A stretch of 64,000 nt of DNA from Candidatus Latescibacterota bacterium (lineage in GTDB: Bacteria > Latescibacterota > UBA2968 > GCA-2709665): NCBI GenBank assembly GCA_012270675.1, contig JAAXHW010000004.1, forward strand, positions 2,603-66,602, written 5' to 3'. The notes under the pieces were generated by a model. It was not told the DNA's origin. It worked only from the letters and a program-made list of their open reading frames with translations, and searched no databases. Every line of letters begins with the position of its first letter. Positions within the stretch are counted from its first letter, which is position 1. This document shows, piece by piece, positions 4,189 through 41,625 of this stretch. A program made the position numbers and the translations under genes.

Positions 4189-4989
4189 TCAGAACTGCCT
4201 GACGGCCTCGCAGGCCTTCTGGACGATGGTGGTGTCGATTTCCTCAACCCGGGCGCCGAATCCGAGGAGCAGGCAGATATCACAGGTGTTGTTAATCTCC
4301 CGGGGGATGCCCCGGGAGGCTCGATAGACGGCGTCCACCGCGTCGTTTTCGAAGATTTTCCGTTTGAGTCCCACTTTTTCCAGACGGGACTGGATATAGG
4401 CGTGGGTCTCTTCCTGTTTGAGAGGGCCAAGGTGGAACTTGGTGGAGACGCGCTGTTCAAGTTGCTTGATGCGTGAGATTCGTTCCCGGAGTTCGGACTG
4501 CCCGATCAGGAGCAGGGTCGCCAGAAAGCGGCCGTTGAGCTGAAAGTTGAGGAGGAGGAGGAGCTCTTCCAGGGTCTCCGGGTCTTCCAGGGCCTGGGCC
4601 TCGTCTACGATGATCACGGTGTCTTTGCCCGCGTCATGGTTTTTGACCATCCGATCGTTGAGGGCCTGGAGCAGGTCGGGCCTGGAGTCCGGGGCTTCTT
4701 CCACGCCGAGCTGGTAGAGGATTCCCCTGAGAAATTCGATGGGGGAGAGGCGGGGGTTGGCCACCACGCCCACTTCGTAGCGGTCGGACTGGAGGTCCTG
4801 TGCCAGGGTGCGGCTGAGGATGGTTTTGCCGCATCCGACCTCTCCTGTGAGCATGGCCGCGCCCTTGCTGTTGACCGCACAAAAGAGGCGCAGCAGCGCC
4901 TCCTGATGCTCTGCAGAAGGGTAAAAGAACCGGGGATCGGGCACGTTTTCAAAAGGAAATTCTTCAATCCCCCAGAATTCTTTGTACAC
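4189..4989 (-). CDS. ExeA/GspA-like AAA (AAA_22) ATPase
   Basis: 'FENVPDPRFFYPSAEHQEALLRL', Walker A 'GEVGCGKT' and Walker B 'VIIVDEAQ'. Probable GTG start at 4989 (GGGAGAAG 7 nt upstream). The track ATG at 5088 adds an atypical hydrophobic/AT-rich leader. Confidence 0.8.
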   Translation of the reverse strand: MYKEFWGIEEFPFENVPDPRFFYPSAEHQEALLRLFCAVNSKGAAMLTGEVGCGKTILSRTLAQDLQSDRYEVGVVANPRLSPIEFLRGILYQLGVEEAPDSRPDLLQALNDRMVKNHDAGKDTVIIVDEAQALEDPETLEELLLLLNFQLNGRFLATLLLIGQSELRERISRIKQLEQRVSTKFHLGPLKQEETHAYIQSRLEKVGLKRKIFENDAVDAVYRASRGIPREINNTCDICLLLGFGARVEEIDTTIVQKACEAVRQF

Positions 4990-5064: not shown

Positions 5065-5199
5065 TATCAGAAGGGGCGAATATGTCAAGGAAAAATAGAC
5101 AAAAATGAACTTTTTGCTTGATTTTTTTGTCTATGTTTGTTTATTTTTTGGAGAAATTTACGGGCCATCGCTTCTGAGGGATATCCACGGGTCACCACA

Positions 5200-5868
5200 A
5201 TGACATTCAGAGATGCGCTTGAACGTGAGATCGCGGCCCAGAGCCTTTCGGTGGCCGAGGTCGCCCAAAAGAGCGGGCTTTCCAAAGGGGCTATTTACAA
5301 TATTCTCAACGGCAAGACGGAAGAGGAACGGATTCGTCCGTCGACCCGACGGGCAATTGCCAGGGGGTGTAACCGGAACATAGAGGTCTCAGAAGAGGGG
5401 GCCGTCCTTTTTGTCGAGCATGGGCGACCGGGACCTGTGGACGAGCCGGGGGAGGTGGAACTGCGCCTGGTGCCAGGCCGCCCCTTCCTGGCGGAGCAGT
5501 TCTTGAGGGAGCCGTTCGATTGGCTCTACAGTCTGGAAGAAGAGGGGGTGCTGACCGGAATCCGGACGGTGGACCGGGTGTTCCAGAAGCGGGAGGAATT
5601 TCTCTCCCTGGTGGTGGAGAACCGGGGGCAGGCCGTTGTGACAGAGGTCCGATTCGATCTGCGCGTGACGTTTGAGGGTGGGGGGCCTTCCAAACAGTTT
5701 TCATCCCGGTTATCCGGCTACGTACCCTGTGGGGGACATGTGGAGGAGACCCTGTTTTTACAGGCTGGGCCGTCCTATTGTGCGGAATTGCTGAACCCCG
5801 TCTTTACGGACCCGGAGGGGCAGACAAAAGAACTCGACGGAGACCTGAAATATTCCCATAAAGGGTAA
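5200..5868 (+). CDS. XRE-type HTH protein with uncharacterised C-terminal domain
   Basis: HTH 'LSVAEVAQKSGLSKGAIYNILNG' lies immediately after the ATG at 5200. The track start (TTG 5137) adds a poly-T-encoded leader. The C-terminal ~150 aa is not recognisable. Confidence 0.6.
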   Translation: MTFRDALEREIAAQSLSVAEVAQKSGLSKGAIYNILNGKTEEERIRPSTRRAIARGCNRNIEVSEEGAVLFVEHGRPGPVDEPGEVELRLVPGRPFLAEQFLREPFDWLYSLEEEGVLTGIRTVDRVFQKREEFLSLVVENRGQAVVTEVRFDLRVTFEGGGPSKQFSSRLSGYVPCGGHVEETLFLQAGPSYCAELLNPVFTDPEGQTKELDGDLKYSHKG

Positions 5869-5874
5869 GATCCG

Positions 5875-7881
5875 GTGATTGAGGCACTCAAGCAGACCAA
5901 GCGGATTCGGATTCATAACGATTCTCCCGCCGACCGGGCGCACCATTTTGGGTTTTCAGTTTATGCGGAGACCTTTGCCAAACTGATTGCCGATTGCGCC
6001 AATCAGACGCCGCTGACGATTGCGATCAGCGGTGCGTGGGGAAGCGGGAAGACATCTCTGATGCGGAGCGTCCGGGAGACGCTGGTCAACATTACCCGGG
6101 AGGTCGACCGGGCCGGGAGAGACAATGTCTTTCGGCGGTGCCGTACGGTCTGGTTCAACGCCTGGAAGTATTCCAGCCGGGATGCGATCCTGGTGGCGCT
6201 GGTAGAGGAGATTGTGGCCCAGATGGTGGCCGAGGGCCTGCCCCGGCGGCAACTGGATCAAATGCGCCAGGTGGAAGGCGGACTGGACTGGACGCGGATT
6301 GCCCGGTCTCTGGACGACCTGTTTCAGCAGAGCGGCAGTGCCGAGATGAAAGGCCTGCTTAAAAACGATACGGAACTGCTGCGCAACCTTCCGCTGCTGC
6401 GGGAGTTCGAGCGGTTTCTGGATCGCCTGATCGGGTGGTCGGTGGCGGGCCACCCTGCCGGTCCCGGGGAACGGTATGACGATTCGGAGGGGGTGATGGT
6501 TTTTTTTATCGACGATCTGGACAGGTGCCAGCCCAATCGTGTGGTCCGGGTGCTGGAGACAGTGAAGCTCTTTATGGACCGGACCGGGTGTGTCTTCGTG
6601 CTTGGGATGGATACCGAGATCGTCGAAAAGGCCGTCAAGGCCCAGTACCAGACCATTGAGGGGTTTGACGAACACGCCTATATGGATAAGATCATCCAGC
6701 TCCAGTTCAACCTGCCGCCCATCCGGCCGGACCATATCCAGGAATTCATCCAGGAGGAACTGATTGGCAGGCAGGCTCAGGAGAGTCCGATCCTGCCTTA
6801 TCTGGAGGATATTTCGGAAACCGTAGAGTCCAACCCCCGAACGGTAAAGCGGTTTTTAAATACCTTTGCGATCCAAAGAAGCCTGGCGGAGACCCGGGGG
6901 TTGCTCAGCGATGGGGTGATGGACGAAGACCTGTTGGCCAAATGGATTATTATCTCTTTTGCTTTTGAGAAATTTGCAGAGCGGGCGCTTCAGCGCCCGC
7001 TTTTGATTGCAGAGCTACAGGAGGCCATCCGGGAGGGGGAGCCCGAGGGGGGGGGGCCACCTCACCTGCGGGAATTCCTGGAAGATCAGCGGCTGGTGAA
7101 CCTGCTCAAGCGAGGCAAGCCCTTTCCAACGGATGAAGAGGAGATTTCGGTTTATACCCATTCAAGCGCGTCCACCCAGCGCGCCCCTGCCGAGGGGTTC
7201 GGCCACACCGCCCTGTCTGTCCTGCGGACGCAGGCAGCAGAGGCGGAAGGGACCGAAGGGGTGATTCGGGTGGAGCGGGGCAAATTCCTGATGGGGGATA
7301 TGAACCGGACCGCGTTCCTGGAGGCGTTTGAGATCGATATGTATCCGGTGACCAACCGGCAGTACATGCGGTTCCTGGACACCACGGGTCACGCTCAGGT
7401 TCCCGAGCACTGGGGGGAGGGTACTTATCCCCCGGAAAAGGCGGACCACCCGGTGGTGAATGTGAACTGGCACGATGCGATGGCCTACGCCAGATGGGTG
7501 GGCAAGCGGTTGCCCACCGAGCAGGAGTGGGAGAAGGCGGCCAGGGGACCGAATGGGCGGACTTACCCGTGGGGCAATACCTTTAACCGGGTCAACTGTA
7601 ACAGCCGGGAACTGGAATTACATGGGACGACGGCCGTCAACCAATTTCCCAATGGGGCAAGCCAGTACGGATGTTACGATATGTCGGGAAATGTGTGGGA
7701 GTGGACAGACACCAATGCGTTCGACAATGAGGAGGCCAAGGTCATCCGGGGCGGGAGCTGGGCGAGTCACCGGGAGGGCATGCGCGCCACAACCCGGGCC
7801 TATGAGCGCGCTGAGCAGCGGCGGCGGGATGTCGGATTTCGATGCGCCCGAAACGTGAGTCCGCCCAGGGTACAGAGGTAG
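5875..7881 (+). CDS. KAP-family P-loop NTPase fused to C-terminal FGE-sulfatase (SUMF1-like) domain
   Basis: Walker A 'GAWGSGKTS', Walker B 'VMVFFIDDLDRC' and 'NPRTVKRFLNTF' (KAP, PF07693-like). From about aa 463: 'HPVVNVNWHDAMAYARW', 'PTEQEWEKAARG', 'GNVWEWT', 'RGGSW' and 'GFRCAR' (PF03781-like). GTG start lies 7 nt after the upstream stop. Confidence 0.8.
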   Translation: MIEALKQTKRIRIHNDSPADRAHHFGFSVYAETFAKLIADCANQTPLTIAISGAWGSGKTSLMRSVRETLVNITREVDRAGRDNVFRRCRTVWFNAWKYSSRDAILVALVEEIVAQMVAEGLPRRQLDQMRQVEGGLDWTRIARSLDDLFQQSGSAEMKGLLKNDTELLRNLPLLREFERFLDRLIGWSVAGHPAGPGERYDDSEGVMVFFIDDLDRCQPNRVVRVLETVKLFMDRTGCVFVLGMDTEIVEKAVKAQYQTIEGFDEHAYMDKIIQLQFNLPPIRPDHIQEFIQEELIGRQAQESPILPYLEDISETVESNPRTVKRFLNTFAIQRSLAETRGLLSDGVMDEDLLAKWIIISFAFEKFAERALQRPLLIAELQEAIREGEPEGGGPPHLREFLEDQRLVNLLKRGKPFPTDEEEISVYTHSSASTQRAPAEGFGHTALSVLRTQAAEAEGTEGVIRVERGKFLMGDMNRTAFLEAFEIDMYPVTNRQYMRFLDTTGHAQVPEHWGEGTYPPEKADHPVVNVNWHDAMAYARWVGKRLPTEQEWEKAARGPNGRTYPWGNTFNRVNCNSRELELHGTTAVNQFPNGASQYGCYDMSGNVWEWTDTNAFDNEEAKVIRGGSWASHREGMRATTRAYERAEQRRRDVGFRCARNVSPPRVQR

Positions 7882-7887
7882 GGAATT

Positions 7888-9387
7888 ATGTCCTGGTTAC
7901 AGACCGCCTTATTGATTGTTTACAGTATTGCACTGGGCCTGCTTCTGCTCTACAGCCTGCACCGGCATCTGCTGGTGCGGCTCTATTATAAGCATCGGAA
8001 GGTGCGACCGACCCCTGTCGGGGCTTTTGAGACATTGCCCCGGGTGACGGTTCAGCTTCCGATCTTCAATGAACTCTACGTTGCCGAGCGGCTGATCCGC
8101 GCGGTGGCCAGGATCGATTATCCCCGCGAGCTGCTGGAGATTCAGGTTCTGGACGATTCGACCGATGAGACGACGGAAATAGTCGGACGCTGTGTCACAG
8201 AACTCCAAAAACAGGGCCTGGATATTGCCTGTTTACACCGCAGCGAGCGGACCGGGTTCAAGGCCGGGGCGCTGGAGGGGGGGCTGAAGGTGGCCAAAGG
8301 GGAGTTCGTGGCGGTTTTTGACGCCGATTTTGTGCCGCCGCCGGATTTCCTGCGGAAGATGCTTCCCTATTTTGACCGTGACGTGGGGATGGTCCAGGCC
8401 CGCTGGGGGCATCTCAACCGGGATTATTCCCTGCTGACCCGGGTGCAGGCCATTTTCCTGGACGGGCATTTTGTAATGGAGCACGGTGCCCGGAGCCGGT
8501 CGGGGATGTTTTTCAACTTTAATGGGACGGCGGGGATCTGGCGCCGGCGATCGATTGAGGATGCAGGCGGCTGGCATCACGAGACCATCACGGAGGACCT
8601 GGACCTGAGCTATCGGGCGCAGCTGGTCGGATGGCGGTTTGTTTTTTTAGACGACATGGTCTGTCCGGCAGAGGTCCCGGTGGAGATGAATGCCTGGAAA
8701 TCACAGCAGTTTCGGTGGGCAAAAGGGTCGATGCAAACGGCCAGGAAGCTGCTGCCCCGCCTGCTGAAGAGTCAAATTCCGGGACGGGTCAAATTGGAGG
8801 GGTTCATTCATTTGACGGCCAATTTTTCCTATTTTCTGATGGCCCTGGTGGCGCTTCTGATCTTCCCGGCGGTACTTTCCCGGCAGGATTTCGGATGGTA
8901 CAGGATTTTTGTGGTAGACCTGCCCCTGTTTATGGCGGCTACCGGGGTGGTCTCCCGGTTTTACATCCACTCACAGAAAGAGATCTATGCCGATTGGAAG
9001 ACGAGGCTTAAATATATGCCTTTTGTGCTTGCCTTCGGGATGGGGATTTCCCTGAACAATGCCCGGGCCGTTCTGGAAGCCCTGGTGGGCCGTGAGACGG
9101 AATTTCGGCGTACCCCCAAGTACCGGGTTGTCGATCAGTGTGATACCTGGAGGGGCAAGCGCTACATTGTTCCCAGGAATCTGCTTTCTTTTCTGGAGGT
9201 GGCCGTGGGGCTTTATTTCTGCTGGGTCATCGGGTTTTCGGTGTACCACGAGATCTATTTCCCCGTTCCTTTTTTGGCCCTGTTCGGTTTTGGCTTCTTC
9301 TACGTGGGCTGGATGTCCATTTTTCAGGGGTTCCTGGAGCGGCTTCGCCTCTGGTCTGCAAAGGTGGAAACCACAGCGGCCGATTGA
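7888..9387 (+). CDS. processive membrane GT2 beta-glycan synthase (CesA/CslA-like)
   Basis: N-terminal TM helix, 'VLDDSTD', 'VFDADF', 'ITEDLDLS' and 'QQFRWAKG' (QxxRW), plus C-terminal TM helices. ATG lies 7 nt after the KAP gene stop. Confidence 0.85.
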   Translation: MSWLQTALLIVYSIALGLLLLYSLHRHLLVRLYYKHRKVRPTPVGAFETLPRVTVQLPIFNELYVAERLIRAVARIDYPRELLEIQVLDDSTDETTEIVGRCVTELQKQGLDIACLHRSERTGFKAGALEGGLKVAKGEFVAVFDADFVPPPDFLRKMLPYFDRDVGMVQARWGHLNRDYSLLTRVQAIFLDGHFVMEHGARSRSGMFFNFNGTAGIWRRRSIEDAGGWHHETITEDLDLSYRAQLVGWRFVFLDDMVCPAEVPVEMNAWKSQQFRWAKGSMQTARKLLPRLLKSQIPGRVKLEGFIHLTANFSYFLMALVALLIFPAVLSRQDFGWYRIFVVDLPLFMAATGVVSRFYIHSQKEIYADWKTRLKYMPFVLAFGMGISLNNARAVLEALVGRETEFRRTPKYRVVDQCDTWRGKRYIVPRNLLSFLEVAVGLYFCWVIGFSVYHEIYFPVPFLALFGFGFFYVGWMSIFQGFLERLRLWSAKVETTAAD

Positions 9388-9503: not shown

Positions 9504-10172
9504 TTACCCCAAAAAGCTGTCTCTCCGGTACTTCGCCTGCAGGCTTTTCATTTCCTTGTGACATCTGTCAATTTCTTCCTGGCAGGTCTTTAGATTCTGC
9601 GCATATTCCCGGTTTTGCTCGTGGAGCGTCTGGAGGCCTTCCGTCTGTTTTTTTTCGATTTGACGCATCCGGTCCAGTTCCCGCCGGAGCCAGTCGGTCT
9701 CCAAAAGCGCCTGTTTTTCGCTTTTTCTGGCATCTTTAAGCTCATCTCGCAAACGGTCCAGGTCTTCCTTGTTTTTTCGTGCCTCCGTCCATCCCGATGC
9801 CGACGAACTTTCAAGCTGGCCCAGCCGTTCATTCAAGATCTTGAGTTCGGCTCTAAGCTCTTTTACCTGAATTTCCGCATATTCAAGCCGTCCTGCACGC
9901 TGCTGGAAACTGTCGTATTCCTCCTGTGAAACGGATATGACGGGTTCTTTTTGCAGTTGTTCGGGGTCGAAATATTCCAATTTTTTTCCATATTTTTTAT
10001 AATATAATTCTATAATATTTCTATATTGAATTCTCCAGGCTCCGTTCCATTTTTCAGCATCCAAAACGCCCTTTTCAATATAATTCCTTATGGTCTTATC
10101 CGTTACTTTTAAAACATTTGCAGCCTGTTTTATGTTTAAATAACGCTGAATTTCTTCACTTTGTGCAGACAT
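9504..10172 (-). CDS. HTH (excisionase/MerR-like HTH_17) protein with long coiled-coil tail
   Basis: 'LNIKQAANVLKVTDKTIRNYIEKGVL' HTH, followed by about 150 aa of heptad-like E/K/R/L-rich sequence. The 5' third of the gene is conspicuously AT-rich. Confidence 0.6.
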   Translation of the reverse strand: MSAQSEEIQRYLNIKQAANVLKVTDKTIRNYIEKGVLDAEKWNGAWRIQYRNIIELYYKKYGKKLEYFDPEQLQKEPVISVSQEEYDSFQQRAGRLEYAEIQVKELRAELKILNERLGQLESSSASGWTEARKNKEDLDRLRDELKDARKSEKQALLETDWLRRELDRMRQIEKKQTEGLQTLHEQNREYAQNLKTCQEEIDRCHKEMKSLQAKYRRDSFLG

Positions 10173-10238: not shown

Positions 10239-12935
10239 CTATGCTGCGCCCAATGCAGCCGCTATGAGATCTTCACTTACCGGTAAACAGAACTGCATCG
10301 CTGTAAATTTCTCTCTGAATTTGGATATACGCCCCCCCAATTTTCTGTTTTTCAGGATACTATCCGACATATATCCGGCCAGTTCCCGGAAATCGTCCTT
10401 TTGCATCCCAAATCTCGTCATTTCCTGCACCCCCAGGCGAATGCCGCTGGCATCTGAGAAGGATGCATCGCCTGGAAGGGCCTGATAATTCGTGATCACG
10501 TTGTTTTCTTCGAGCCTCCTGGCGACTTCAGCGCCTTTACCGTGCCCCACGTTCAGAATCACCTGGTGCGTTTCCGTATAGTCCACGGAAGGATCGCCCT
10601 CGACAGACAGACCGCTTTCACAAAGGGCCCTGGCAAACGCTTTCGCATTGGCCATAACCTGTGTCTGATAGTCGTCCCTGAAGGCCATCATTTCATAAGA
10701 AGCACCCAGCAGCGCCAGGAGCGTTCCCAGGTGATGGTTGCTTACATCTCCGGGAAACACTTCGGCTACGATCCGCTCCCACAGCGGCCTGTAAAAGGTG
10801 GATTCGGACATCCTGCTGGCGATAACGCCTCTCTGCGGCCCGAAAAAGGTCTTGTGTGTCGATCCGGTAACAATGTCAGCCCCCTCTTCGAAAGGCTTCT
10901 GAAAGTGCGGGCCCACCAATCCCAAAACGTGCGCCATATCGTACATGAGAATGGGCCGATCCGCTCTGTCTGCCACGAATGCTGCGATCTCTTTCACTGG
11001 CTCTGGATGCAGCACCATACTCTTGCCGAATACCGCCAGCTGTGGGCTGTATTCTTCGATCAGCGTCTTTGTCTTTTCAACGTCAATTCGATAGGGGTTA
11101 TCCTCCCTGACAGGAAAATGAACGACCGCGGGCCGTTCCGTCCTGGAATCGTGCCGCACCAAGTGCCGCAACGCGCCCATGTACTGCGCGCTTAAGTGCC
11201 CTCCCCTGCCCAGGTGGTTGTTCATCACATAGCCCAGCCTTGCAGGTTCGCCCCGTCCAAACCGGTTCAGATAATCCACCAGCCCCGAAAAAACGGACTT
11301 GTTGGCCATCTGTCCCGAAATGGGCCTCACCTCGACTTCGGAGCATTCCAGATACGCCCTGAGAACGGCCTGGGCCGCCTCTTCAACCCATTCAATAAAT
11401 CCGGTCCCCTGATAGTAAAAAACGTCCTTTGCAGCCTTTCCAAACGCTTTTATCGTCTTGTGCTCGGCATATCTGGCGGCCGGGTCCAGGATTGAAAGCA
11501 GCCTGACAAAGCGCGAGGGAGTCTGTTCCGAAGGAATCAGGTTTATCGCTCCGGACTGCCTGAGCTTCGTATTTTCAACCGCCCGCACTGACAATGCTTC
11601 TGCCTCGGGCAGCTGGTTGACGCCATACCGAAACCTTCTTGCTTCAGGGTGGATAATCACCCTGGAATACGGGGGCGCAGCCTCCAGGTTGCTCCTGACC
11701 ACGATTGCAGGTACAAAACGGCTTCTGGATTTTCGGATGTCCAGGAACTGTCCGGATTTGCCGGATACGATGGCCGAGTCGATATAGGCGATGGCAATCG
11801 CCCTCCTGTCCTGTGCTTCGCCCGGTGCAGCATATAACCCCGATCCCTCAAACCGCAGATAAGGGACAATCGTACCGCTTGTCACCCACCCAACGGGACT
11901 TTCATCCAGGTAGACCTCGTCCCCTTGTCTTGCAGAACTGATTCCCGGCCCGGTCCGGTCCCCATTCAGTATCGCGATCTGCCGAACAAACCTGGGCACA
12001 ACTCTCTCGTGGAAAGGCCTGGCGAACCTCCCCCCTGCCCTCAACCTTTCGACGACTTCCTTGTTCTGCTCTATTAATGCGCCTTTTCCGATATAATCTC
12101 CTTTGTCCACCGCAAAACTCGTGGATTTTCTGCCCAGCGCAAGCGCACAGATCGGAATGGGGTCTCCATTGGGGTCCTCACCCAGTTCATGCCCGTACAG
12201 AGGCAATCCGGATTCCAATCTCAGGGTATCCCTTGCGCCCAGACCGACGGGAACAACGCCGTGCCCCTGGCCCTGGTCGAGGACCTGTTCCCACAGGGAC
12301 AAGGCGTTCGATCGCTCTGAGAAGAGCTCAAAGCCCACAGGCTCTCCCGTATACCCTGTCCTGGCAACAATGACAGCGCTTCCGTTTATTCTGACGAACG
12401 ATAGCATATTCTTAAACGGTTCGGGCAGCCTTCCTGAATTCCCGTTCAGGCGCAGTATGTCTTCCAGAATCAACGCTGCTTTTGGACCCTGCAGAGCCAT
12501 CATCGCAAGGTCCTCGCTCTTATCCGTGAATACGGTATTGGGAAATTTGGGCCGGAACTGATCCAGCCACTGCCAGTCTTTTTCCCGGTTGGCCGCATTC
12601 ACCACCAGCATATATTCACCTTCACCTACCCGGTACAAATACGCATCGTCTATGGCACCCCCGTTTTCGTCCGGAATGAGGGTATACTGCGCCTTTCCGA
12701 CTTCGTTCAGAGCAAGTACATTATTGGTAGTTAGATACTGCAAAAAGGGAATCGCATCACCCCCGGACACAAAAAATCTGCCCATATGGCTGATGTCGAA
12801 CAGCCCGGCGTTCGTTCTCGTCGCAATGTGTTCGGAGAAAATGGTCCTGTACTGGATTGGCATGTCGAACCCACCAAATCCGAGGGTCTTTGCCCCGGCG
12901 CTTATATGCCAGTCGTAAAGAACGGTTTTTTTCAA
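10239..12935 (-). CDS. fusion protein: glycine-cleavage aminomethyltransferase (GcvT) N-terminal + archaeal-type serine hydroxymethyltransferase-like C-terminal
   Basis: The N-terminus 'VLYDWHISAGAKTLGFGGFDMPIQY...AGLFDISHMGRF' matches GcvT. From about aa 455, 'INLIPSEQTPS', 'DMAHVLGLV' and 'GSTHKTFFGPQRG' (PLP lysine motif) match SHMT. TTG start with AGGGGA RBS. Confidence 0.8.
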   Translation of the reverse strand: MKKTVLYDWHISAGAKTLGFGGFDMPIQYRTIFSEHIATRTNAGLFDISHMGRFFVSGGDAIPFLQYLTTNNVLALNEVGKAQYTLIPDENGGAIDDAYLYRVGEGEYMLVVNAANREKDWQWLDQFRPKFPNTVFTDKSEDLAMMALQGPKAALILEDILRLNGNSGRLPEPFKNMLSFVRINGSAVIVARTGYTGEPVGFELFSERSNALSLWEQVLDQGQGHGVVPVGLGARDTLRLESGLPLYGHELGEDPNGDPIPICALALGRKSTSFAVDKGDYIGKGALIEQNKEVVERLRAGGRFARPFHERVVPRFVRQIAILNGDRTGPGISSARQGDEVYLDESPVGWVTSGTIVPYLRFEGSGLYAAPGEAQDRRAIAIAYIDSAIVSGKSGQFLDIRKSRSRFVPAIVVRSNLEAAPPYSRVIIHPEARRFRYGVNQLPEAEALSVRAVENTKLRQSGAINLIPSEQTPSRFVRLLSILDPAARYAEHKTIKAFGKAAKDVFYYQGTGFIEWVEEAAQAVLRAYLECSEVEVRPISGQMANKSVFSGLVDYLNRFGRGEPARLGYVMNNHLGRGGHLSAQYMGALRHLVRHDSRTERPAVVHFPVREDNPYRIDVEKTKTLIEEYSPQLAVFGKSMVLHPEPVKEIAAFVADRADRPILMYDMAHVLGLVGPHFQKPFEEGADIVTGSTHKTFFGPQRGVIASRMSESTFYRPLWERIVAEVFPGDVSNHHLGTLLALLGASYEMMAFRDDYQTQVMANAKAFARALCESGLSVEGDPSVDYTETHQVILNVGHGKGAEVARRLEENNVITNYQALPGDASFSDASGIRLGVQEMTRFGMQKDDFRELAGYMSDSILKNRKLGGRISKFREKFTAMQFCLPVSEDLIAAALGAA

Positions 12936-39085: not shown

Positions 39086-40543
39086 CTATCCCTTCACGTT
39101 CCCAATCGGAATAAACCGCACCACCCGCCGGCTGATGCCTGCCTGCTGAGTGACGTTGATCACCTCGTCGATATCCTTGTAGGCCCCACCCGCCTCTTCG
39201 GCCAGGCCCCGGAAGGAGACGGTGCGCACGTAGATCCCCCGCTGTTCCATCTCCTGTTGCAGCCGCTTCCCGTGGAACTGCTTCCGGGCGCGGGTGCGGC
39301 TCATCGTGCGCCCGCTGCCGTGAGCCGTGGAGAAGAAGGTCTGCGCCCCGCTTTCCACCCCCGCCAGGAGGTAAGACCCGGTCTCCATGCTCCCACCGAT
39401 AATCACCGGCTGGCCCACCTGCCGGTAGTGTTGCGGCAGATCCGCCATCCCGGGCCCGAAGGCCCGGGTCGCGCCCTTTCGGTGGACCAGCACCTCCCGC
39501 TCCGCCCCATCCACAACGTGCCGCTCCAGCTTGGCCGTGTTGTGGGCCACATCGTAGACCATGCGCATCCCCATCTCCTCCGCACTGCGCCCCAGCACCT
39601 CTGAAAAGACCTCACGGATGCGGTGCAGGATAACCTGCCGATTGGCCAATGACATATTCACACCACATCTCATCGCAGCGAAATAGTCCTGCCCCTCCGG
39701 CGACCGGAACGGCGCGCAGGCCAGCTCCCGGTCCCGCACCCGGATGCCGTACTTGCGCTGCATGACCTTCAAAAAGAGCTGCAGGTAGTCAGTGGCTACC
39801 TGGTGCCCGAACCCCCGACTGCCGCAGTGGAACATCACGACCACCTGGTCCGGGACCGTTATCCCGAAGACCTCGGCCGTTTTTTTATCGTAAACGAACG
39901 CCGGTTTGGCCACCTGGATCTCCAGATAGTGGTTGCCCGATCCCAGCGTACCAATCTGGTTGAACCCGCGCTCCACGGCCTTTCGGCTGATCCTGGAGGC
40001 GTCCGCCCCGGCGATGCAGCCCCCTTCCTCGGTCCGCTCCAGGTCCTCTTCCCAACCATACCCCTTTTTCACACACCACCGGGCACCCTCTTCAACAACC
40101 GTCCGGAACGCGTTGTGGGACAGCTTGAGGAATCCAGTACTGCCCACCCCGGCCGGAACGCGTTCAAAGAGTCTGTCCACCAGCTTCTTCAGGTGGGGCT
40201 TCACTTCGTCGTGGGTCAGATTTGTGGTGACCAGGCGCATCCCGCAGCAAATATCAAACCCGATTCCGCCGGGTGAAATCACCCCCTCTTCCGCATCCAT
40301 CGCCGCCACCCCCCCAATGGGGAAACCGTAGCCCCAGTGTCCGTCCGGCATGCAGTAGGCGTACTCCAAGATCCCCGGCAACGTGGCCACATTGGTGACC
40401 TGGTCGATCACCCCCTCATCCATCTCCCCCATCAGCTTCTCGGTCGCATAAATACGTGCAGGTACCCGCATCCCTTCTTTGTGGGAGGTTGGGATCTCCC
40501 AGATCGTATCCGAAATCTTTTGCGCTGCAGATGGAATCGGCAT
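39086..40543 (-). CDS. rtcB: RNA-splicing ligase RtcB (3'-phosphate/5'-hydroxyl)
   Basis: 'MPDGHWGYGFPIGGV', 'GGIGFDICCGMR', 'GSGNHYLE', 'FHCGSRGFGHQ' and 'VAHN' motifs. ATG at 40543 with GAGGAGGAGG upstream. The track extension to 40804 is unsupported. Confidence 0.93.
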   Translation of the reverse strand: MPIPSAAQKISDTIWEIPTSHKEGMRVPARIYATEKLMGEMDEGVIDQVTNVATLPGILEYAYCMPDGHWGYGFPIGGVAAMDAEEGVISPGGIGFDICCGMRLVTTNLTHDEVKPHLKKLVDRLFERVPAGVGSTGFLKLSHNAFRTVVEEGARWCVKKGYGWEEDLERTEEGGCIAGADASRISRKAVERGFNQIGTLGSGNHYLEIQVAKPAFVYDKKTAEVFGITVPDQVVVMFHCGSRGFGHQVATDYLQLFLKVMQRKYGIRVRDRELACAPFRSPEGQDYFAAMRCGVNMSLANRQVILHRIREVFSEVLGRSAEEMGMRMVYDVAHNTAKLERHVVDGAEREVLVHRKGATRAFGPGMADLPQHYRQVGQPVIIGGSMETGSYLLAGVESGAQTFFSTAHGSGRTMSRTRARKQFHGKRLQQEMEQRGIYVRTVSFRGLAEEAGGAYKDIDEVINVTQQAGISRRVVRFIPIGNVKG

Positions 40544-40683
40544 GGCCTCCTCCTCTTTCAGATCACATAGGGAACATAATACCGGTCCAGGCGTTCCACT
40601 AAAAATTCTCAAGCGACACAGGAACTCCTGATCGAGTCCATAAATATATCCTGTGTCCGACCAATGGTCCAGAAGATTCGTCA

Positions 40684-41625
40684 ATGTCATCCCCCGGCAT
40701 GAATAGAAGAGGACGCAAAATGACGGCAGGCGTATCCATCTCTGCGATGGGAAAGAACGCCGGCGTGCTGCTGATCGCCGCATCATTCTGCCTGTTCTCC
40801 ACAACAGGCTGCGGCACGGTCCCCCCGGACGGGCCGCAGGAAGGCGAGGTTTTCAGCGCGGCGCTCCCGGACAGTACGACGATAGCGTTTGTCTGGATCG
40901 AGTCCGGGATATTTGTCATGGGGTCGTCCGAGTTTGAACAGGGGCGGTTTGCGGACGAGAGCCCGCAGCATACAGTCACAATAAGCGAGGGGTTCTACAT
41001 CGGAAAATTTGAGGTAACACAGGGGCAGTGGACGGCGGTGATGGGCACCTACCCCTGGCGCCTGCGCCCCCCTGCCCAGGGGCCAAGAGCCTATGTGGTG
41101 GAGCACCCAGACCACCCTGCGGCGTATATCTCCTGGTACCTTGCACAGGCTTTCATCCAAAAAATGAACGAGACCGCCGGAGATTCGCTGTACCGGCTGC
41201 CCACCGAGGCGGAATGGGAGTATGCGGCGAGGGCCGGGACGATTACGGCGTGGTCGTTTGGGAACAATAAAAGCTGGATGCAAGATTATGGGTGGTACCT
41301 GAACAACGCCTGGATCAGCGATCAGGAGGATGAAGGAGAGAAGTATGCGCACAGGGTAGGCACCAAGCTGCCCAATCCCTGGAAACTGCACGACATGCAC
41401 GGGAACGTATGCGAGTGGACACAGGACTGGTATTCGGACACCTACTACAGCACCTCTCCTCCCGTAGACCCCACCGGCCCCCCATCGGGCAGGTACCGCG
41501 TCCTTCGAGGTGGCGCCTTCAACAACGATGCCGCACGGACAAGATCGGCCCGGCGCAGCGGCCTTCCTCCGGAGTTTATGGGGAACGGAAGCATCGGCTT
41601 CCGGTTGGTGAGGCAGGTGAATTGA
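40684..41625 (+). CDS. lipoprotein with FGE-sulfatase (SUMF1-like) domain
   Basis: Signal/lipobox 'LLIAASFCLFSTTGC'. 'HPAAYISWYLAQAF', 'PTEAEWEYAARAG', 'HGNVCEWTQDWY', 'RGGAF' and 'GFRLVR'. Start is ambiguous (40684, 40699 or 40720). Confidence 0.8.
   Translation: MSSPGMNRRGRKMTAGVSISAMGKNAGVLLIAASFCLFSTTGCGTVPPDGPQEGEVFSAALPDSTTIAFVWIESGIFVMGSSEFEQGRFADESPQHTVTISEGFYIGKFEVTQGQWTAVMGTYPWRLRPPAQGPRAYVVEHPDHPAAYISWYLAQAFIQKMNETAGDSLYRLPTEAEWEYAARAGTITAWSFGNNKSWMQDYGWYLNNAWISDQEDEGEKYAHRVGTKLPNPWKLHDMHGNVCEWTQDWYSDTYYSTSPPVDPTGPPSGRYRVLRGGAFNNDAARTRSARRSGLPPEFMGNGSIGFRLVRQVN

Follow-up and report, generated by a model that had tools for sequence, protein, structure and literature searches.

Organization of the locus

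The window analyzed here is a stretch of 64,000 nucleotides from a Candidatus Latescibacterota bacterium. Positions 5875..7881 of its forward strand carry a single intact ORF, opened by GTG and closed by TAG, in which a KAP P-loop NTPase devoid of transmembrane (TM) segments is combined with a cysteine-less FGE-sulfatase/C-type-lectin (CLec) domain. The encoded soluble protein of 668 aa is referred to below as KAP::FGE. The gene located directly upstream on the same strand (5200..5868) encodes a protein of 222 aa, HTHX, whose TAA stop codon (5866-5868) is separated from the GTG at 5875 by a 6-nt spacer. A processive family-2 glycosyltransferase gene (GT2; 7888..9387, forward strand) begins six bases past the KAP::FGE stop codon, and an ExeA/GspA-like AAA_22 ATPase is encoded divergently from this operon on the reverse strand (4189..4989).

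Both domains proposed for KAP::FGE in the initial annotation were recovered by profile searches. The KAP domain (5953..6885, forward strand, aa 27-337) matches PF07693 with an E-value of 6.6e-42 and 144.2 bits for a cut-off of 20, over positions 1-292 of the 293 in the profile. The Walker A motif GAWGSGKTS (nt 6031-6057, aa 53-61) and the Walker B motif VMVFFIDDLDRC (nt 6493-6528, aa 207-218, including FFIDDLDRC), both on the forward strand, are intact with respect to the GxxGxGKT/S and hhhhDDxD patterns, and a third KAP motif, NPRTVKRFLNTF, is present at aa 320-331. In an alignment of 62 family members, no variation was seen at residues G53, W55, G56, G58, K59, T60, F211, D213, D214, L215, D216, R217, C218, N320, P321, R322 and K325. 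A sequence search of the PDB returned no match to this half of the protein at E<=1e-3.

The absence of TM segments, also anticipated from the sequence, is in agreement with a Kyte-Doolittle scan, in which no TM-like segment was detected besides a borderline amphipathic helix at aa 104-122, where the 19-residue mean peaks at 1.68. KAP::FGE differs in this from classical KAPs, which typically, though not always, carry TM helices in or beside the P-loop domain. The AlphaFold2 (AF2) model is all-soluble (mean pLDDT 85.4), with both halves confidently predicted and a helical region between them. The prediction of a cytoplasmic protein, with a helical region and a disordered linker between its halves and a non-catalytic, ligand-binding CLec part, is well supported. 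An assembly or frameshift error joining two separate genes was refuted as the origin of KAP::FGE. No point in favor of such an artefact was found, and two points stand against it: the confident AF2 model of both halves with their helical connection, and the homologues. A search at E<=1e-5 yielded 1573 of these in several phyla, and the 120 best, originating from independent assemblies and phyla, all display the identical two-domain architecture in a single ORF of similar length. The 37 close orthologues span 654-674 aa, and KAP::FGE orthologues begin at the same residue as the window protein.

The C-terminal domain (7258..7851, forward strand, aa 462-659) matches PF03781 with an E-value of 1.8e-50 and 172 bits for a cut-off of 23.3. 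Its best solved relative is SUMF2/pFGE (1y4j), detected by sequence (E=2.7e-31) as well as by Foldseek (aa ~514-664, rmsd 2.4 A, 32% identity); the Foldseek matches to FGE structures range from 2.4 to 2.9 A, and the CLec prototype TvpA (PDB 2y3c) is also detected by sequence (7.8e-5). This domain dominates the Foldseek list obtained with the full-length protein. The Cys-x4-Cys copper-site pair that follows RGGS[FWY] in FGE was not found: RGGSW is followed by ASHREGM, and the alignment to pFGE/FGE contains no cysteine at this position. The loss of the cysteines and the binding rather than catalytic role deduced from it in the initial annotation are both supported.

A catalytic enzyme of the FGE/EgtB/PvdO type coupled to an NTPase, active in sulfatase maturation or as a sulfoxide synthase, would account for the strong FGE-sulfatase Pfam match, for partial NCBIfam matches to EgtB, SenA and OvoA, and for the name 'SUMF1/EgtB/PvdO family nonheme iron enzyme' carried by the homologues in databases. 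The EgtB-type matches, however, span just the C-terminal FGE-like half (96 bits for a cut-off of 360), and no DinB-like iron domain is present, the N-terminus being occupied by KAP. FGE chemistry was rejected, since the copper-site cysteines are missing and the closest relative in both structure and sequence is the inactive paralogue pFGE/SUMF2. In addition, the equivalent loop is a hypervariable region in the relatives described below, and such variability cannot be reconciled with a fixed active site. An enzymatic function is accordingly regarded as extremely improbable.

Relationship to diversity-generating retroelements

KAP::FGE had been considered an uncharacterized architecture. Besides the number of its homologues, the literature on diversity-generating retroelements (DGRs) speaks against this: KAP NTPase::CLec proteins are among the targets of DGR clade 5D (Dore et al. 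2024, PMC10907252), and target classes combining an NTPase with FGE-sulfatase are listed in categories b7-b11 (Wu et al. 2018, PMC5758913). Several phyla, Chloroflexota, Desulfobacterota and Nitrospirota among them, contain KAP::CLec relatives of the window protein whose loop between RGGSW and GFRCAR is rewritten by DGRs. Outside the window lineage, KAP::FGE is a DGR target in at least 11 of the loci examined, according to adenine-specific TR/VR mismatches and an adjacent Avd/RT. Avd and/or RT genes adjoin KAP::FGE in L003, L005, L006, L010, L011, L015, L025, L028, L031, L032, L039 and L065. Mismatches located at TR adenines amount to 14/14 in L010, 16/17 in L011, 20/21 in L015, 13/14 in L025, 15/15 in L028, 12/12 in L034, 13/13 in L062 and 18/18 in L065, with 14/18 in L031 and 18/27 in L032. 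The translation of the L003 TR is an AAC-rich 35-residue peptide.

The DGR NTPase::CLec targets, in which a KAP/STAND NTPase precedes a C-terminal FGE-type CLec domain, share the architecture of KAP::FGE and are homologous to it over the full length (33-46% identity), the VR scaffold residues R637, R641, R649 and GFRC being common to both. The TR/VR pairs of the homologues map onto the stretch equivalent to aa 630-653 of the window protein (ASHREGMRATTRAYERAEQRRRDV; 7762..7833, forward strand), between RGGSW and GFRCAR. As judged from this mapping, the stretch starting with ASHREGM is the VR-equivalent of DGR targets, that is to say a ligand-contact surface and not a lost active site. The earlier description of ASHREGM as a mere active-site replacement had missed this connection.

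Contrary to the hypervariable regions of the DGR targets, the VR-equivalent of the window protein is conserved. Its entropy within the Latescibacterota clade is 0.88 bits, compared to 0.90 bits for the rest of the domain and 2.68 bits for the VR-equivalent of distant homologues. Y643, R649, R650, R651 and D652 do not vary within the clade. By this pattern the loop has become fixed in the clade and is subject to purifying selection, with E634, R641, Y643 and R649-R650-R651-D652 conserved. No VR-focused microdiversity was found within five 90% clusters, where 0 to 4 of the 24 columns are variable without enrichment. The components of a DGR are missing as well: no second copy of nt 7622-7921 was found in the 64-kb window (blastn, word size 7, E<=1e-3), no TR for KAP::FGE in the orthologous loci checked, no RT or Avd by tblastn and HMM searches in the window, L001, L002 and L007-L009, and neither gene in the gene lists of L087-L089 and of the P0022 locus.

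It could be argued that KAP::FGE is still actively targeted and that a DGR located elsewhere in the genome diversifies it in trans. Remote targets are on record (PMC7159879, PMC5758913) and the view is limited to 64 kb of the genome. This reading nevertheless appears highly improbable and active targeting is largely refuted. The loop is kept between species and within the 90% clusters, neither the window nor nine orthologous loci contain a second copy, an RT or an Avd, and the VR-equivalent codons of the Latescibacterota sequences do not belong to the AAY-derived NNY type, those at the would-be variable positions being GAG, CGG, CAG and ATG, which AAY templates cannot yield. In a neighbor-joining tree computed without support values, the window lineage is sister to L003, a locus with a decaying DGR; on this basis the DGR was most probably lost in the window lineage and the specificity frozen, the alternative being that it was never acquired. 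What is new in the window clade is the frozen VR-equivalent, the absence of a DGR, a clade-restricted partner with HTH and Ig-like domains and a conserved promoter element. The DGR-linked loci have neither the dedicated partner nor the conserved operon.

The upstream partner HTHX

A putative XRE-type HTH (aa 1-56) forms the N-terminus of HTHX and is followed by a beta-hairpin and, over aa 86-220, by a predicted Ig-like beta-sandwich. The match of the window protein to HTH_3 is below the Pfam cut-off (21.4 bits for 23), while PF01381 is precomputed for several orthologues, which start at the same residue as the window protein. The AF2 model (pLDDT 87.7) displays a helical HTH bundle at aa 1-56, and Foldseek retrieved the HTH_3 regulator 1y9q (E=6.7e-4). 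The C-terminal domain, initially described as unrecognizable, is an Ig-like beta-sandwich in the predicted structure; its Foldseek matches are weak, generic Ig-like/ApaG/arrestin folds (E~1e-3) without a functional lead. The family is small: a set of 5.8 billion proteins contains only 43 clusters of it, and of 1.84 billion representatives only 15 reach E<=1e-10. An exhaustive profile search for remote relatives returned only the same small family along with generic HTH or Ig-repeat matches. In these searches HTHX is restricted to the window clade. The tight linkage noticed initially holds beyond the 6-nt gap, HTHX being directly upstream of KAP::FGE in 9/9 orthologous loci.

The divergent promoter region

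The AAA_22 protein (Pfam AAA_22, 3.3e-23) scores 217 bits with NCBIfam TIGR03015 (XrtA/PEP-CTERM-associated ATPase) for a cut-off of 324 and is, by this comparison, related to that family without being a member. Its start was revised to the V codon of VYKEFWG at 4989 instead of the TTG at 5088: the orthologues are annotated with 267 aa starting from this V, and a promoter on the reverse strand falls inside the longer ORF. This near-consensus sigma-70-type promoter (5088-5061, TTGACA-16-TATATT) matches 11 of 12 positions and carries an extended TG. Two sigma-70-type sites were observed for 0.5 expected in shuffles.

A conserved block, promoter and putative operator, extends over 5083..5150 on the forward strand, with the organization GTCAAG-AAAAATAGACAAAAATRAAC-N5-CTTGAT(-35)-N17-TTATTA(-10). 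It contains 20 invariant columns in 8 loci whose proteins are merely 63-83% identical, L088 included, in which AAA_22 is missing; GTCAAG is kept in all 7 loci covering it. An inverted repeat (5091-5105 / 5124-5138, AAAAATAGACAAAAA / TTTTTGTCTATGTTT) is 93% complementary; outside the window, only L087 has a well-preserved right arm. The conserved block is put forward as a candidate operator, although its A/T-rich box could instead be an UP element.

Synteny and genomic surroundings

The GT2 protein carries a QQFRW motif and about 5 TM segments; it matches Glyco_tranf_2_3 (9.2e-28), and its NCBIfam CelA and PgaC matches are far under their cut-offs. The predicted co-occurrence of the pair with GT2 and the divergent ExeA-like gene was largely observed: GT2 is found downstream of KAP::FGE in 8/10 orthologous loci, being absent from the two most divergent ones (L002 and L089), and AAA_22 is present in 8/9, with L088 as the exception. 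HD_5 (7/9) and cytochrome c (7/10) are both absent from the window. Since each of these genes is missing from one locus or another, true invariance is confined to the HTHX-KAP::FGE pair. The L001 cytochrome and the L002 membrane protein are unrelated to each other. Two loci, L001 and L087, have IS elements a few kb further downstream. A scan of the genome collection yielded no more than three species representatives from the window clade.

The initial annotation had raised the possibility of a defence island. The window neighbors argue against it: they encode LeuRS, AsnRS, a GcvT-SHMT fusion, MutL, RtcB and an aldolase, and no other defence gene was found among these housekeeping surroundings. 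The PqqD/ScmC/radical-SAM neighbors were also considered as peptide-modification modules of the kind described by Kaur et al. 2020, and this was dropped as the paper gave no support.

Proposed function and comparison with known systems

With its loop frozen and its gene locked to a lineage-specific HTH partner, KAP::FGE looks like a fixed-ligand regulatory switch. MalT, a STAND-type ligand-gated regulator, provides a works-like comparison: the binding of the ligand to the sensor leads to NTP-dependent switching or oligomerization of the P-loop module and finally to the HTH output. The logic would be alike here, except that the NTPase is KAP, not STAND, and that the HTH resides on a separate polypeptide. 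The proposal of a fixed-ligand NTPase switch that works with HTHX as a split MalT-like regulator of an envelope-polysaccharide operon, and that is derived from a hypervariable sensor family, may equally prove right or wrong. The frozen, strongly basic CLec surface would bind one conserved ligand. As in STAND/KAP sensors, binding would gate the NTP-dependent switching or oligomerization of KAP, and the signal would pass to the obligate, co-translated partner HTHX. Through the conserved element of the divergent promoter region, HTHX would then regulate its own operon, in which genes for a processive GT2 polysaccharide synthase and for a secreted dihaem cytochrome c are normally found. It may also control the divergent operon of the ExeA-like ATPase and HD-GYP.

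The broader evolutionary scenario is more tentative and rather doubtful as a whole: a DGR-diversified family of KAP::CLec antigen sensors would have been domesticated, in a single bacterial lineage, to a germline-fixed receptor which, with a new HTH and Ig-like partner, regulates envelope polysaccharide. Somewhat less probable still is a germline-fixed antiphage sensor, in which the frozen loop would see one conserved phage component and trigger an effector, HTHX being an autoregulator and GT2 and the other genes bystanders. The soluble or TM KAP proteins studied (PifA, QatA, EF_KAP, Tmn) are involved in phage defence and not in gene regulation (PMC13552941, PMC13279940), and KAP NTPases with diverse C-terminal fusions protect against phage experimentally (PMC13552941). 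The DGR diversification of the wider KAP::CLec family (PMC10907252) implies an arms-race type of recognition, XRE regulators serve as autoregulators in many defence operons, and the IS elements of L001 and L087 would fit as well. In PADLOC, the KAP half matches PDC-S20, QatA and PifA at about 1e-30. These PADLOC matches are nevertheless only partial, and the QatA equivalog NF041923 reaches 124 bits for a cut-off of 600 over stretches of the KAP half only, so that no membership can be assigned. No Tmn model matched KAP::FGE in PADLOC, and no Qat match was found among the neighboring genes, QatB, the QueC-like QatC and the TatD-type QatD being missing. Moreover, no effector domain is present in KAP::FGE or in its invariant neighbor, the surroundings are of the housekeeping type, and vertical descent is suggested by orthologues that, at 63-83% identity, retain both the multi-gene synteny and the conserved promoter. 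The frozen recognition surface is also the opposite of what is observed in the DGR-linked relatives. The ligand-sensing switch in 'defence or envelope/polysaccharide control' suggested at first would be better accommodated by its second option in this clade and less well by defence.

PifA (F plasmid), QatA, EF_KAP-type proteins and Tmn have in common with KAP::FGE the KAP P-loop, its conserved Walker A/B motifs and the position of a variable region on its C-terminal side (PMC13552941), and QatA (QatABCD) is also soluble and forms 7-8-mers (PMC13279940). The similarity is confined to the KAP half. Tmn and EF_KAP have TM helices, which KAP::FGE lacks, and the C-terminal domain of the latter is a CLec fold encoded outside a defence island. 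SUMF2/pFGE likewise lacks the catalytic cysteine pair but is a stand-alone protein of the animal ER lumen, whereas the window domain forms the C-terminal part of a bacterial, cytoplasmic NTPase.

DGR-diversified NTPase::CLec proteins have been proposed as bacterial 'antigen sensors', which are hard to study because they are hypervariable. The Latescibacterota version offers a tractable entry point: its one binding surface is conserved, its partner is obligate, and its promoter, also conserved, has GT2 as a plausible regulated gene. Should the domestication scenario hold true, it would be a bacterial case of an adaptive-like sensor shifting to an innate or regulatory receptor, and the frozen loop (Y643, R649-R651, D652) would provide a handle on the ligand class of CLec-NTPase sensors. 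The database label 'nonheme iron enzyme' quoted above is misleading for such proteins and is corrected here: their missing FGE cysteines mark the DGR-type binding loop and not a degenerate enzyme.

The KAP::FGE protein

The intact ORF at 5875..7881 (+), with a GTG start at 5875, encodes the 668-aa protein KAP::FGE, a KAP P-loop NTPase fused to a FGE-sulfatase/C-type-lectin (CLec) domain. We hold the following account of its identity and evolution with high confidence. Both domains had been proposed in the initial annotation and were borne out by Pfam profile searches, in which KAP_NTPase (aa 27-337, E=6.6e-42) and FGE-sulfatase (aa 462-659, E=1.8e-50) score far over their curated cut-offs. All the motifs quoted at that stage are present with key residues unchanged across 62 family members, and the NTPase is intact, its catalytic motifs being invariant. 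The description of a soluble protein was also correct: no transmembrane (TM) segment occurs in KAP::FGE, the sole borderline hydrophobic stretch (aa 104-122) being an amphipathic helix, and the AlphaFold model (mean pLDDT 85.4) depicts a soluble protein of three parts, in which a P-loop domain and a helical region precede the FGE domain, with a disordered linker at aa 438-460. By profile and motifs KAP::FGE belongs to the KAP NTPases, without the TM insert found in classical members. The cysteine pair of FGE is absent, as had been noticed, and SUMF2/pFGE is the closest solved relative in both sequence (2.7e-31) and structure (rmsd 2.4 A). SUMF2/pFGE is a paralogue of FGE that is inactive by nature. 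The CLec domain of KAP::FGE is non-catalytic and a catalytic FGE/EgtB enzyme is effectively excluded. Identification of the protein as QatA, as Tmn or as a catalytic FGE was rejected in each case.

Retroelement targeting in distant relatives

Among 5.8 billion proteins searched, 1573 match KAP::FGE at E<=1e-5, and the KAP + FGE architecture is identical in the best 120 of these. Such conservation rules out rarity and effectively excludes an assembly artefact as the source of the fusion. Among reference genomes, the fusion is present in Latescibacterota, Chloroflexota/Anaerolineae, Desulfobacterota, Nitrospirota, Brocadia, Desantisbacteria and others. The fusion is a large family whose architecture and link to diversity-generating retroelements (DGRs) are already known. 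Dore et al. 2024 (PMC10907252) name KAP as one of the NTPase types that carry DGR-diversified CLec domains in clade 5D, the target classes of Wu et al. 2018 (PMC5758913) include NTPase + FGE-sulfatase, and the 'FGS' domain is considered by Kaur et al. 2020 (PMC7159879) to bind invader molecules directly. No experimental characterisation exists for any of these proteins.

The same link was observed in the homologous loci fetched here (numbered with the prefix L). Three of the four distant homologues first examined (33-44% identity) adjoin bAvd, one of the three being also accompanied by a reverse transcriptase (RT), and upon scanning of all fetched loci Avd and/or RT were found beside KAP::FGE in at least 12 distinct loci. 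In distant loci, the ~120 nt at the 3' end of the gene recur close by in a second copy, and the two differ at adenines of that copy, the hallmark of a DGR template repeat (TR). Mismatches fall on TR adenines in 14/14 cases in L010, 16/17 in L011, 20/21 in L015, 13/14 in L025, 15/15 in L028, 12/12 in L034, 13/13 in L062 and 18/18 in L065; the pattern is less clean in L031, L032 and L003. The variable region (VR) of these relatives is exactly the stretch from RGGSW to GFRCAR, i.e. the 'ASHREGM...' segment. The initial annotation had read this segment as a lost active site; the absence of cysteines stands, and the segment itself corresponds to the VR. In a separate arrangement (L005 8001-13845), a single Avd gene sits between a KAP::FGE gene and a Metallophos-NACHT::FGE gene whose VRs are 84% identical, so that one DGR appears to serve two different NTPase sensors; TR and RT are both missing within this 18-kb locus.

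A frozen loop in the window clade

The clade of the window comprises ~40 clusters at 63-100% identity, with members named Latescibacteria or Latescibacterota by their sources. No RT, Avd or TR was found in the 64-kb window or in nine orthologous loci. The VR-equivalent loop (aa 630-653, nt 7762-7833) displays a mean positional entropy of 2.68 bits versus 1.42 for the remaining FGE domain in 80 distant homologues, where fifteen positions above 3 bits are interleaved with a conserved scaffold (R637, R641, position 646 and R649). The corresponding values in 36 clade members are 0.88 and 0.90 bits, and the fifteen 'DGR-variable' positions average ~0.72 bits, under the whole-protein mean of 0.82. 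Y643, R650, R651 and D652 are unchanging in the clade and hypervariable outside it. The loop holds no excess of variable columns (0 to 4 of 24) in five 90%-identity clusters taken as population-level variants. The codons at its would-be variable positions (GAG, CGG, CAG, ATG) are not derivable from AAY templates. Three of the four features defining a current DGR target, namely TR, RT/Avd and VR hypervariability, are lacking in the 64 kb of this genome and the orthologous loci analysed, and KAP::FGE is a homologue of the DGR-targeted NTPase::CLec variable proteins. An active remote DGR is effectively excluded, and the CLec ligand loop is under purifying selection in the clade.

A neighbour-joining tree was built on the KAP and helical regions. 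The window clade is sister to L003 and DGR-positive loci are scattered over every major branch. L003 (6995-7108 and 8630-8743), the closest outgroup, carries RT, Avd and an AAC-rich TR. Since 16 of its 33 TR/VR mismatches are off TR adenines, the L003 sequence suggests a decaying DGR that no longer homes and is drifting. As the tree carries no support values, we only infer that the DGR was lost and one specificity fixed in the window clade, which is the parsimonious reading.

The HTHX partner and its promoter

The 222-aa ORF at 5200..5868, named HTHX, ends 6 bases before the GTG at 5875, in agreement with the coupling initially described. A protein of this family (220-236 aa) directly precedes KAP::FGE in all nine loci with upstream sequence, and the genomic pairing is obligate. 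HTHX is confined to 43 clusters, each full-length, in the set of 5.8 billion proteins, and just 15 of 1.84 billion representatives scanned exhaustively reach E<=1e-10, these being the family itself or its fragments. In the model (pLDDT 87.7), aa 1-56 form a probable XRE-type HTH; a beta-hairpin and a short disordered linker lead on to an Ig-like beta-sandwich (aa 86-220) with weak, ApaG/arrestin-like structural neighbours only.

Upstream of HTHX lies a block of ~65 nt that is conserved, with 20 of its columns invariant, in all eight loci compared, while their proteins are just 63-83% identical. It reads GTCAAG-AAAAATAGACAAAAATRAAC-N5-CTTGAT(-35)-N17-TTATTA(-10). The near-consensus minus-strand promoter predicted in the window, TTGACA-16-TATATT (11 of 12 positions matched), has GTCAAG as its -35, and a 15-nt inverted repeat (5091-5105 / 5124-5138, 93% complementary) flanks the plus-strand -35. 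The position of the minus-strand promoter places the start of the divergent AAA_22 gene at 4989 instead of 5088, and the gene calls of orthologues agree. L088 keeps the block though its AAA_22 gene is lost. A sugar-nucleotide/LPS-type cluster (PfkB, CTP_transf_like, DegT, radical SAM-SPASM, GT4 and GT9 fragments) occupies L088 1-8345 in place of ExeA-like/HD_5.

Genomic setting and proposed function

The expected co-occurrence of HTH, KAP::FGE, GT2 and ExeA-like genes was confirmed. Besides HTHX, a divergent AAA_22 ATPase of ExeA/GspA-like type, which falls short of the cut-off of the related TIGR03015 model, is found in 8/9 loci, and a processive GT2 (QQFRW motif, ~5 TM segments) in 8/10, its gene beginning 6 bases after the KAP::FGE stop in the window (junction 7879-7890). 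An HD-GYP-type HD_5 protein adjoins AAA_22 in 7/9 loci; the window has none. In 7/10 loci KAP::FGE and GT2 are separated by the gene for a secreted dihaem cytochrome c (two CxxCH motifs and a signal peptide in L001 10009-10758), which the window cleanly lacks. The combination of a DGR-free clade with a frozen loop, an HTH + Ig-like partner and a conserved operon was not found described in the literature searched.

The main rival explanation, a germline-fixed antiphage sensor, is considered unlikely. Proteins combining KAP with a C-terminal region defend against phage experimentally (PMC13552941) and partial PADLOC matches were obtained, but no effector is present, synteny is conserved vertically and the setting is of a housekeeping nature: the remainder of the window encodes LeuRS, AsnRS, a GcvT-SHMT fusion, MutL, RtcB, an aldolase and a BCCT transporter, and is not a defence island. 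A regulatory role of KAP::FGE and HTHX is preferred as a tentative mechanism, possible if somewhat short of probable. The frozen, strongly basic loop would bind a single conserved ligand, possibly anionic, and binding would gate switching of the KAP module, or its oligomerisation, in an NTP-dependent manner. QatA, a KAP protein, assembles as 7-8-mers (PMC13279940). HTHX may then relay the signal to transcription at the divergent promoter, thereby controlling the GT2 operon. The proposed logic is akin to that of a split MalT-type switch.

Several other features were recorded. A RiPP-like set (PqqD, ScmC/HPr-kinase-C-like, radical SAM, NTP_transf_5) lies just past HD_5 in orthologous loci (L001 300-2935; L002 1-4150; L087 1-4066; L089 2185-4805); FG-GAP, Rieske and amidohydrolase genes are found instead beside the window copy. 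The GT2 gene is convergent with an ORF of 222 aa (9504-10172, -) in which an excisionase/MerR-type HTH_17 precedes a long coiled coil. The single 898-aa ORF at 10239-12935 (-) joins a GCV_T aminomethyltransferase (aa 6-254) to SHMT (aa 451-856); such a fusion of two enzymes from one-carbon metabolism is unusual. The RtcB RNA ligase (39086-40804, -) displays an N-terminal extension of ~134 aa without Pfam match, which may reflect an over-long ORF call starting at TTG. A second, stand-alone FGE-sulfatase protein of 313 aa (40684-41625, +; Pfam 1e-47) possesses a lipoprotein-like N-terminus (…LFSTTGCG), likewise lacks the Cys pair ('RGGAFNNDAARTRSARRSGLPPEFMGNGSIGFRLV') and probably acts as a binding protein, secreted and of the GldK/PorK-like or CLec type.
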